Made by a program: the position numbers and the translations under genes. This document shows, piece by piece, positions 41,154 to 42,190 of a DNA stretch of 64,000 nucleotides. The stretch lies in the IMG/VR virus record IMGVR_UViG_3300031857_000001. The stretch is one strand, 5' to 3'. Origin of the DNA: a virus. Taxonomy: Duplodnaviria; Caudoviricetes. Under the pieces are notes generated by a model. That model had not been told where the DNA came from and searched no databases. It saw only the letters and a list, made by a program, of their open reading frames with translations. Numbering within the stretch: the stretch's first letter is position 1; every line of letters starts with the position of its first letter.

Positions 41154-41398
41154 TATCTTTGTAAAAGATTTGACACCTACAGGTGATGAAAGATACTCGG
41201 AAAGTTAAATCTAAAAAAAAACTACAAATAAATTTGGTGAAATGAAAAAGTCACCATATATTTGTAAAGGATTTGAGACGGACAACGATTAAGATACAAG
41301 TCTCGAATCTTAAAAAAAGTTTAAGAAAAATTGGAAGATTGAAAAATTTGACTTAAATTTGTAAAACAATTCGGGAATGACCGAAAAGTTCTTTGAAA
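41154..41398 (+). promoter_or_regulatory. Three tandem TAnnTTTG promoters plus boxA (rrn-like leader)
   Basis: TATCTTTG at 41154, TATATTTG at 41257, TAAATTTG at 41354 and AAGTTCTTTGAAA at 41386-41398. Confidence 0.7.
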
Positions 41399-42190
41399 GA
41401 TTTTGGGCCGTGTATGGTCCTTTAAAATAAACTACGAAAGTAGGATAAAGTGGTCTCCCCCGTGTTAAGGAGACTGCGGCTTCAGAAATGGAGCTCGAGT
41501 ACACAAGTGGGATATCACAAGACCTTTAGTACCGAGGGTAACACTGTAGGGAAAGTGGAATTGTGACCTGGGAATGTGGATTCTCAAGTTGAGTTCGGAA
41601 GAACAATAAGAATAACCCATAGGAATCAAGTAAGAAATGTGGCTTCCAACTACAATATTGCGGATTCCAATACCGAAGGGGACTTAAAACCGAAAGGTAA
41701 GGTGGAGAACGAGTGGTGTCGCTACTACCCCTAAAGATGACCTACCAAGGTCTCTTTATGAAGTAATCTGAAAGTATGGAGATAGGGATATCTCACGGAG
41801 TAGTTTAGTATTCCGTCACCCAAAAGGAGGCGGAGCTTACGGTGGACCACTACTCTGACACATCCACGACACAAATCTTAAATTATGAACAATAATTAAA
41901 GGAAAAGTGTCCATCACGGTACAACGGAAGTTGCCCACATAGCTTAGAGATGTTCTGAGCATAGTGAGACCCCAAGTTGAACTATATTTTTACGAAAAAC
42001 CTCTAATCTCGCAAGGATTAATTGGGAAGGCATTCTCGAAGAGAGCTGAGTAGTAAGAGAGTAGTTGTATCGTCAAGGATTGATTGGCCTTACCAATTGG
42101 CAATGAGTAATACAAGACAAAATCTTGTGGATAAGAGTAGAAAAAATAATGACTCTAAAGGTACTCAATCAAAGCTGTAATCTCAGGCTT
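41399..42190 (+). ncRNA. ~800-nt large structured RNA, GOLLD-like
   Basis: ORF-free and GC-enriched versus its flanks, with many hairpins including GNRA loops. Size and phage/tRNA context match GOLLD. Family assignment not verified by covariance search. Confidence 0.6.

Follow-up and report, generated by a model that had tools for sequence, protein, structure and literature searches.

GOLLD RNAs and related systems

GOLLD RNAs have been known since 2009. The member considered here lies, together with its leader, at positions 41132 to 42189 of a 64,000-nucleotide stretch of viral DNA (the window) from IMG/VR record IMGVR_UViG_3300031857_000001, a 321,403-bp phage record with direct terminal repeats, in keeping with the jumbo phage proposed in an initial annotation made from the letters of the DNA alone. 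The best overall explanation of the locus, to which we give a probability of about 0.85, is a complete GOLLD gene preceded by a leader like those of ribosomal RNA (rRNA) operons (rrn) in a phage of Bacteroidota. The RNA itself is a new member of a known family.

The GOLLD RNA env-38 has been solved by cryo-electron microscopy at 3.0 Å as an RNA-only cage, a 14-mer with D7 symmetry (Kretsch et al., Nature 2025, PMC12286853). The window copy shares both domains with env-38, and collinearity of the two 5' domains begins at the first helix (GGCCG..TATGG, CGAAAG, GGATAAAGTGG) and extends as far as the 3' domain junction. Both RNAs also have a GAAA-capped helix where L11a lies and an A-rich linker, and the Met-tRNA that adjoins the env-38 GOLLD (PMC12286853) has a counterpart in the tRNA-Met neighbour of the window's relatives. 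The window GOLLD is 786 nt long, whereas the env-38 model comprises residues 1–833. Unlike env-38, which comes from a marine scaffold, the window copy comes from a freshwater giant phage assigned to Bacteroidota, and it stands alone, with three promoters and a boxA-type leader of its own and a short linker of 58 nt without a tRNA.

GOLLDs in tRNA arrays have been described in Mycobacterium, according to the work of Morgado (2020) as cited in PMC12286853. The GOLLDs found in such arrays (in a Lactobacillus brevis prophage, in Mycobacterium and in the Acinetobacter phages Herod and AM24) resemble the window copy in having the same 3' domain, in being phage-borne and in their association with tRNAs. 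Unlike the window copy, they sit inside the arrays and are presumably co-transcribed with them; the nearest annotated tRNA lies 2.8 kb upstream of the window GOLLD, and an endonuclease cassette has displaced the tRNA-like gene that adjoins it. In Herod (L249, MW316732.1, 1396–2185) and AM24 (L250, 1395–2184), a gap of about 790 nt separates tRNA-Asn from tRNA-Asp. In these cultured Acinetobacter baumannii phages, blastn aligns 173 nt of the gap, which carries no annotation, with part of the GOLLD 3' domain at about 70% identity, and a GOLLD appears to have gone unannotated in the GenBank records of both phages. ROOL RNAs are similar in size class, in phage and tRNA context and in forming RNA-only cages (a cage being assumed for the window copy by analogy with env-38), but they are distinct from the window GOLLD in sequence and fold. 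The roles proposed for GOLLD are the encapsulation of tRNAs or ribosomal particles (PMC12286853) and the storage of embedded tRNAs (PMC12990946).

A complete GOLLD RNA with both domains

The RNA and the gene directly upstream are made up as follows.

40398–41114, plus strand: upstream M23-peptidase open reading frame (ORF; Pfam Peptidase_M23)
41404–42189, plus strand: complete GOLLD RNA gene with both domains, 786 nt
41404–41795, plus strand: GOLLD 5' domain, corresponding to the cap domain in the env-38 cage (nhmmer, alignment A2, collinearity with env-38)
41432–41443, plus strand: helix 3 of alignment A2, CTAC-GAAA-GTAG (CUAC/GUAG changed to CCAC/GUGG and CCUC/GAGG)
41689–41698, plus strand: helix 15 of alignment A2, ACC-GAAA-GGT (ACC/GGU changed to GUC/GAC)
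41732–41758, plus strand: 11-bp hairpin TAAAGAnGACCT/AGGTCTCTTTA, with a conserved UACCAA loop and a stem that differs in relatives and in env-38
41796–42189, plus strand: GOLLD 3' domain (Rfam RF02032, model positions 1–416)
41858–41915, plus strand: A-rich linker in the 3' domain, 58 nt, with no tRNA inside
41916–41925 with 42064–42073, plus strand: pseudoknot arms of the 3' domain, 10 bp
42004–42020, plus strand: L21a-like hairpin of the 3' domain, TAATC..GCAA..GATTA, present in the Rfam GOLLD model

When the whole window was compared with Rfam 15, RF02032 gave an untruncated match of 298.3 bits (E 2.5e-84; gathering score 150), and an Rfam scan of the 321,403-bp genome found a single GOLLD, the one at 41796–42189. 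The pseudoknot arms, as read from the Rfam alignment (ACGGUACAAC and GUUGUAUCGU), are paired at 10 of 10 positions, with one G-U. The ROOL model yielded nothing at its gathering score, nor at E ≤ 1 over 40900–42500, and the other Rfam families scored over the region, snoRNA and manA, were rejected as sub-threshold noise (E > 0.1). The longest ORF between the end of the M23-peptidase ORF (41114) and the end of the minus-strand ORF at 42193 encodes at most 64 amino acids. The initial annotation had proposed an ORF-free region carrying an RNA of about 800 nt and had named GOLLD as its family, and all of this holds.

The Rfam model spans the conserved 3' half of the RNA only, and the 5' half was therefore tested separately. 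A search by nhmmer with positions 41399–41795, against IMG/VR loci and the published huge-phage genomes LR745206 (635 kb) and LR756502 (642 kb), returned 18 homologous stretches, each of them directly 5' of a GOLLD 3' domain. An alignment of 13 sequences of the 5' domain (A2) folds into 92 pairs in 18 helices, with compensatory changes in 45 of the pairs. When this structure is kept fixed, 96.7% of the A2 cells are standard pairs, as against 36–46% when the partners are slid by 1–3 columns; the number of pairs changed on both sides is 45, as against 3–14 in the slid controls, and none of 500 column shuffles attained the observed values. The four hairpins quoted in the initial annotation are all present and are all conserved GOLLD helices (helices 3 and 15 of A2, the hairpin at 41732–41758 and the Rfam hairpin at 42004–42020).

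For env-38, the printed construct sequence (Kretsch et al., PMC12286853) was compared with the window by eye. From its 5' end, ATGGCCGCTATGGTCGTCAAATAAATACGAAAGTAGGATAAAGTGG, and throughout the 5' domain, env-38 is collinear, block by block, with the window up to the junction CGGGTAGTT / CGGAGTAGTT. Judged from this collinearity, the window GOLLD is of the same two-domain type as the solved env-38 14-mer, with a predicted start at about 41404. A 20-mer common to the window and env-38, ACGAAAGTAGGATAAAGTGG, is present in 108 IMG/VR contigs, and the length of GOLLD among non-duplicate IMG/VR loci with a complete 3' domain is 780–830 nt, the window copy measuring 786 nt. Within the 3' domain, one loop has the sequence CGCAA in the clade of the window and UCGAA in the clade of the huge phages LR745206 and LR756502 (loci L002, L003 and L026). 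A GC/CG switch has been published for the self-pairing loop L21a (bridge B8, env-38 nucleotides 656–657; PMC12286853), and the difference between CGCAA and UCGAA fits this switch, the loop being mapped to L21a by position arithmetic alone.

The initial annotation had also allowed for a related new class. That the RNA merely resembles GOLLD and belongs to a class of its own is now refuted to the point of being practically impossible, with RF02032 matched from end to end at a score double the gathering threshold and a 5' domain collinear with env-38. On the sequence evidence, the window RNA is a member of the GOLLD family and not of a new class, because the Rfam match is full-length, ROOL is absent and the 5' half is homologous to that of env-38. 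What the window offers is not a new class of RNA, but a clear, free-standing representative, in a complete giant-phage genome, of the GOLLD type whose structure has been solved.

The occurrence of GOLLD elsewhere was surveyed with a pattern of 15 specified bases from the GOLLD 3' end, which was scanned in cellular genome contigs (596 Gb) and in viral contigs. None of the 120 matches in cellular contigs was GOLLD by nhmmer, whether one sequence or a profile served as the query; these are chance matches, and the scan is therefore uninformative on GOLLD in cellular genomes. About 25 of the 117 matches in viral contigs are real GOLLDs, the remainder being mostly due to chance.

Tandem promoters and a boxA-like motif upstream of GOLLD

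The leader contains the following elements.

41132–41161, plus strand: promoter P1, TTG-N19-TATCTTTG, with its TAnnTTTG box at 41154
41167–41211, plus strand: hairpin GATTTGAC...GTTAAATC and then an A-run, at the start of a predicted P1 transcript; kept in relatives, its role conjectural
41234–41264, plus strand: promoter P2, TTG-N20-TATATTTG, with its TAnnTTTG box at 41257
41270–41309, plus strand: hairpin GATTTGAGAC...GTCTCGAATC and then an A-run, after P2 (from the sequence and relatives)
41331–41361, plus strand: promoter P3, TTG-N20-TAAATTTG, nearest to GOLLD, with its TAnnTTTG box at 41354
41370–41385, plus strand: boxB-like hairpin TTCGG-GAATGA-CCGAA, directly 5' of boxA
41388–41398, plus strand: boxA-like leader element GTTCTTTGAAA

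The initial annotation had reported three TAnnTTTG promoters about 100 nt apart and a boxA before the RNA, and these were found in place: the boxes are at 41154, 41257 and 41354, each with a TTG 19–20 nt upstream, and P3 is followed by the hairpin, GTTCTTTGAAA, 5 nt and the first GOLLD helix. The form TTG-N19/20-TAnnTTTG is the −33/−7 housekeeping promoter type of Bacteroidota. In the genome, 33–37% of such −33/−7 pairs are intergenic, as against the 11% expected, a threefold enrichment. A fourth TAnnTTTG, at 41229, provides the −33 TTG of P2. The spacer of P2 (41237–41256) contains an inverted repeat, the arms of which co-vary among relatives (GGTGA..TCACC, GACA..TGTC, GGCA..AGCC); an operator whose half-sites co-vary is one possible explanation of it, a hairpin in RNAs started at P1 another.

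The conservation of the leader was assessed in 84 non-redundant related phage GOLLD loci (the relatives), boxA being sought up to 260 nt upstream and promoters up to 480 nt upstream. A boxA-like motif precedes GOLLD in 82 of the 84 loci, as GTTCTTTGAA (n=58), GTTCTTTAAA (n=22) or a one-base variant (n=2), and is absent within the 260 nt searched in the other two. At least two TAnnTTTG boxes are present in 71 relatives, against a chance mean of 0.45 calculated from the genome-wide density, and the number of boxes ranges from 1 to 4. The −7 box of P1 stays TAnnTTTG in relatives (TACATTTG, TATATTTG), and the P2 box, TATATTTG, is invariant among close relatives. By-eye inspection of 15 relatives showed that the tandem boxes and GTTCTTTGAA persist and that the hairpin before the motif keeps its position and changes its sequence, as illustrated by GTTACTC-aacg-GAGTAAC in L002 and L026 and by AAATCTCA-aatg-TGAGATTT in L027. 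In L002 and L026, the motif is kept even though a tRNA, rather than a promoter, stands upstream, and it therefore behaves as an RNA-level element.

The triple promoter admits a simpler reading, which we consider quite unlikely: P3 alone would serve GOLLD, with P1 and P2 making short hairpin RNAs or being regulatory sites or the leftovers of a duplication, in which case there would be no rRNA-like triple promoter. P1 and P2 are each trailed by a conserved hairpin and an A-run, as this reading would have it, and the region containing P2 and P3 (41212–41369) has 79% identity to a stretch of the huge phage LR745206 located between tRNA genes, 5' of a tRNA-like gene. The variable box count of the relatives and the weak statistics of the cluster point the same way: four TAnnTTTG boxes within 250 nt occur at three places in the genome, and the expectation by chance is about 0.39 for at least one such cluster per strand. 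Another of these clusters is at 8786, and the description of the GOLLD leader as the strongest expression architecture in the window was not confirmed. Against P3 as the sole promoter are the failure to find any terminator between P1, P2 and P3, the presence of at least two boxes in 85% of the relatives, and the two or three tandem boxes that host rrn leaders likewise possess.

Likeness to the rRNA leaders of Bacteroidota

The rrn leader of Escherichia coli consists of tandem promoters, P1 and P2, and a boxB-boxA-boxC region that assembles an antitermination complex of NusA, NusB, NusE, NusG and SuhB. The GOLLD locus resembles it in having two or three tandem promoters, a hairpin, a boxA and then a long untranslated structured RNA, and differs from it in that the cargo is a phage RNA, no boxC is recognised and the gap between boxA and the RNA is very short. 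In the nut sites of phage lambda, boxA comes first and boxB second, and these sites act on mRNA operons with the phage protein N. The resemblance to nut lies in a phage-borne boxA element, here putative, that would make the host polymerase resistant to termination; unlike nut, the GOLLD leader has the hairpin before boxA, as in rrn leaders, and its targets are stable RNAs. We know of no N-like protein for the phage carrying this GOLLD leader.

Leaders of the host phylum were read in Bacteroidota genomes reached through the chance pattern matches mentioned above, in which the 16S gene was located with RF00177 and the DNA upstream was inspected. The 16S gene of Saccharicrinis sp. is preceded by two tandem TATCTTTG boxes and then by GTTCTTTGAA about 105 nt before 16S; that of a complete metagenome-assembled genome of Bacteroidales by the boxes TACCTTTG and TAATTTTG and then GTTCTTTGAG; and that of Bacteroidetes RA.bin83 by three boxes and then GTTCTTTGAG and GTTCTTTGAA. 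The 16S leader of Sphingobacterium daejeonense contains GTTCTTTAAA. Overall, GTTCTTTGAA, GTTCTTTGAG or GTTCTTTAAA is found 100–160 nt before 16S in four of the six Bacteroidota leaders of sufficient length; the fifth has GTTATTTGAC, the motif was not matched in the sixth, and one further contig was too short.

The phage leader replicates that of the rrn operons in the host phylum, in that the same tandem boxes and the same motif are present in both, including the GAA/AAA variants of the latter. The rRNA-like transcription put forward in the initial annotation is thus borne out as an architecture, with tandem boxes and GTTCTTTGAA/G found before Bacteroidota 16S genes. The promoters and boxA point to a host within Bacteroidota, an assignment made at the level of the phylum. 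Both where the motif lies and its resemblance to boxA elements of other bacteria suggest that it would be a boxA bound by NusB-S10. No rrn-style leader on a GOLLD was found in the literature on GOLLD, Bacteroidetes, antitermination and jumbo or huge phages, of which coverage was incomplete, and neither PMC12286853 nor PMC12990946 mentions GOLLD promoters, boxA or Bacteroidota. As it stands, a large phage clade wires its GOLLD like a ribosomal RNA gene and groups it with tRNA genes and the transfer-messenger RNA (tmRNA) gene.

Other stable-RNA units sharing the leader

Five tRNAs and the tmRNA lie within 9 kb of GOLLD. The leaders and genes that bear on the boxA-like motif are listed below.

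Box 33018, motif 33031, plus strand: leader of the tRNA-Leu/tRNA-Met pair (TAnnTTTG and motif)
Box 36721 (TATATTTG), motif 36734 (GTTCTTTGAAA), plus strand: leader of an unassigned RNA of about 370 nt running into tRNA-Glu
Box 44174, motif 44160, minus strand: leader of the tmRNA
43769–44146, minus strand: tmRNA (Rfam, 90.3 bits), missed by ARAGORN in the window
9845–10366, plus strand: NusG-like transcription antiterminator (PF02357, 69.7 bits; phrog_6386)

A TAnnTTTG box followed, after 5–6 nt, by GTT[AC]TTTGAAA precedes three stable-RNA units of the phage other than GOLLD, and in two of them, those of tRNA-Leu and the tmRNA, the motif ends 1–2 nt before the mature RNA. The boxB-like hairpin is absent from the tRNA, tmRNA and unassigned-RNA leaders. 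The genome has 15 GTTNTTTGAA sites, of which five fall within 40 nt after a TAnnTTTG box, and four of these five precede RNA genes; the fifth promoter-plus-motif site, at genome position 311857 on the minus strand, was rejected as due to chance, since it has no Rfam match around it and appears, by eye, to be within coding sequence.

These units bear on a rival interpretation of the motif. GTTCTTTGAAA may not be an antitermination boxA at all, but an initially transcribed sequence, an RNase site freeing the mature 5' end or a site for a phage protein; on balance, this seems unlikely. Its position, 5–6 nt after the −7 box and 1–2 nt before mature tRNA-Leu or tmRNA, leaves little room for a Nus complex, the short distance to GOLLD and the lack of a recognisable boxC in the window are in line with this objection, and the phage has a NusG-like factor of its own but no NusB. 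The motif is nonetheless identical to the 16S-leader motif of Bacteroidota, and its GAA/AAA variants in phages mirror those of the hosts; it persists in L002 and L026 even where no promoter adjoins it, and it is preceded by a hairpin, like the boxB of rrn leaders.

The region of the unassigned RNA (36721–37119, plus strand) consists of about 370 nt that are free of ORFs, richer in GC and directly continuous with tRNA-Glu (37120); no Rfam family matches it, even with the cut-off relaxed to E ≤ 0.1. The tmRNA carries its own TATCTTTG box and GTTATTTGAAA leader and has a bidirectional terminator at 43732–43755. Its tag is read by ARAGORN as GNIFNKLSAVGLIRTEENISVA in the relative L117, and the window encodes the same ...LSAVGLIRTEENISVA ending, unlike the usual ...ALAA. 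Two tRNA-like genes, at 33212–33367 and 37335–37455 (plus strand), have an acceptor and T-arm of the Leu/Ser kind (GTCAAGTGGCGGAAT..., GGTGGCGGAATGGTAGAC...) with long internal insertions. They were called neither by ARAGORN nor by Rfam, and may be intron-containing or long-arm tRNAs.

The 3' side of the unit

Downstream of GOLLD, the following features were recognised.

42192–43102, minus strand: inserted cassette between GOLLD and the remainder of the ancestral unit
42193–42900, minus strand: free-standing endonuclease VII-like ORF (phrog_1035, E 2.7e-20)
43060–43090, plus strand: promoter TTG-N20-TATATTTG before the displaced tRNA-like gene
43124–43196, plus strand: tRNA(CAT)-like gene, homologue of the tRNA-Met(CAT) located 3' of GOLLD in relatives
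43204–43307, plus strand: conserved element of about 105 nt that trails the tRNA-like gene and precedes the terminator
43308–43333, plus strand: intrinsic terminator AAGGTGAG-GAAA-CTCACCTT (43308–43327) plus T7, the ancestral end of the GOLLD unit

In the relatives L094, L045, L064, L068 and L117, a tRNA-Met(CAT) begins 18–24 nt after GOLLD and is followed by an intrinsic terminator, L064 and L094 running from GOLLD directly into the tRNA with no cassette. This tRNA directly follows GOLLD in 12 of 50 relatives, whereas 36 of the 50 have no tRNA directly after it. The post-GOLLD tRNA-Met(CAT) of L094 (9198–9270), L045 (3648–3721) and L068 (295–368) has the C1xA72 mismatch that marks initiator tRNAs in bacteria. 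The homology of the window to these relatives ends near 42199 and restarts at 43103, and the ancestral unit can be reconstructed as promoters, boxA, GOLLD, tRNA(CAT), trailing element and terminator, because homology resumes past the cassette. Read in this way, the ancestral GOLLD unit is one that a free-standing endonuclease gene has split. The endonuclease VII-like gene is inserted exactly between GOLLD and the tRNA(CAT)-like gene, and the cassette, which is shared with L080 (87% identity), recalls the homing endonuclease genes that occur in the tRNA region of phage T4. The displaced tRNA(CAT)-like gene was missed by both ARAGORN and Rfam, and has a non-canonical T-loop, UGCAACU, in place of UUCGAAU. 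The trailing element is near-identical in L064, L266 and L080, although the tRNA diverges.

A split unit raises the question of whether the window copy is a decaying, non-functional GOLLD, cut off from its tRNA and terminator by the endonuclease insertion. The degenerate T-loop of the tRNA-like gene and the displacement of the terminator by 1.1 kb would suit such a reading, as would the loss from the window copy of a leader stretch of 75–95 nt that follows boxA in relatives. Decay is nevertheless very unlikely, given that the Rfam match is full-length, at 298 bits as against 275–333 in relatives, that the pseudoknot and nearly all the GOLLD helices are intact, that most relatives likewise have no tRNA directly after GOLLD, and that the same cassette is found in L080, the arrangement having therefore persisted.

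Proposed mechanism and the evidence against it

A complete, functional GOLLD with an rrn-like leader would operate in three steps. Host RNA polymerase would start at P1–P3 early in infection, which we regard as likely. The nascent boxA would then recruit host NusB-S10 and other Nus factors, as on rRNA operons, and the polymerase would become Rho-resistant on the long untranslated RNA, possibly with better co-transcriptional folding; the chances of this step are about even. Finally, the RNA would probably self-assemble into a cage like that of env-38, with the 5' domains as caps and the 3' domains as rings.

The motif TATAAATA, the late promoter of the T4 type, is relevant to the timing of the first step. 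In the whole genome, 68% of its occurrences are intergenic, as against 11% expected, a bias in line with late transcription of a T4-like kind in this phage. The motif is absent from the GOLLD leader, for which reason GOLLD looks to be driven by the host polymerase, and such drive suggests early expression.

Several observations weigh against the interpretation of the locus as an rRNA-like unit producing a cage RNA. The promoter cluster alone is statistically unremarkable, and the case for the promoters stands because they are conserved in relatives, not because they are clustered. The distance from boxA to the first GOLLD helix is only 5 nt here, as against 50–120 nt in relatives; no conserved GU-rich boxC was recognised after boxA, and a phage-encoded NusB was sought and not found. 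There is no boxA-like motif in the TAnnTTTG-driven GOLLD subtype represented by L028, L043 and L016, nor in the GOLLDs of Acinetobacter phages, so that the leader is not a feature of GOLLDs at large. The terminator belonging to the unit is now 1.1 kb downstream, beyond the inserted endonuclease gene, and a termination-resistant polymerase might cause antisense read-through of that gene. Other GOLLDs have other stoichiometries (PMC12990946), and one GOLLD, in L. brevis, was reported to be dispensable for phage production (PMC7567579).

With these points taken into account, we advance only tentatively, at somewhat less than even odds, the broader proposal that the GOLLD clade of Bacteroidota phages (82 of 84 loci) hijacks the host machinery for rRNA transcription. 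Through an exact copy of the rrn leader, the polymerase would acquire the Nus complex, with its antitermination and RNA-chaperone activities, giving rRNA-like output and the co-transcriptional folding required for cages, as part of a 'stable-RNA regulon' that would also include the tRNA, tmRNA and unassigned-RNA genes and compete with host rRNA synthesis. GOLLD would belong to a set of RNAs for translation takeover, since the tRNA, tmRNA and 370-nt RNA share the leader and relatives co-transcribe GOLLD with tRNA(CAT); a role for GOLLD itself in this takeover, most likely as a container or scaffold for tRNAs or ribosomal particles, is conceivable, if somewhat doubtful. The locus thereby ties the question of GOLLD function to that of translation takeover.

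Neighbouring genes

Upstream of the NusG-like gene, at 8786–9040 on the plus strand, another four TAnnTTTG boxes are clustered within 250 nt. The gene at 39511–39963 (plus strand) encodes a cREC_REC receiver domain of the cyclic-phosphate processing type (PF20274), and that at 46568–48613 (minus strand), near the tmRNA, a ClpB/ClpC-like double AAA+ ATPase.

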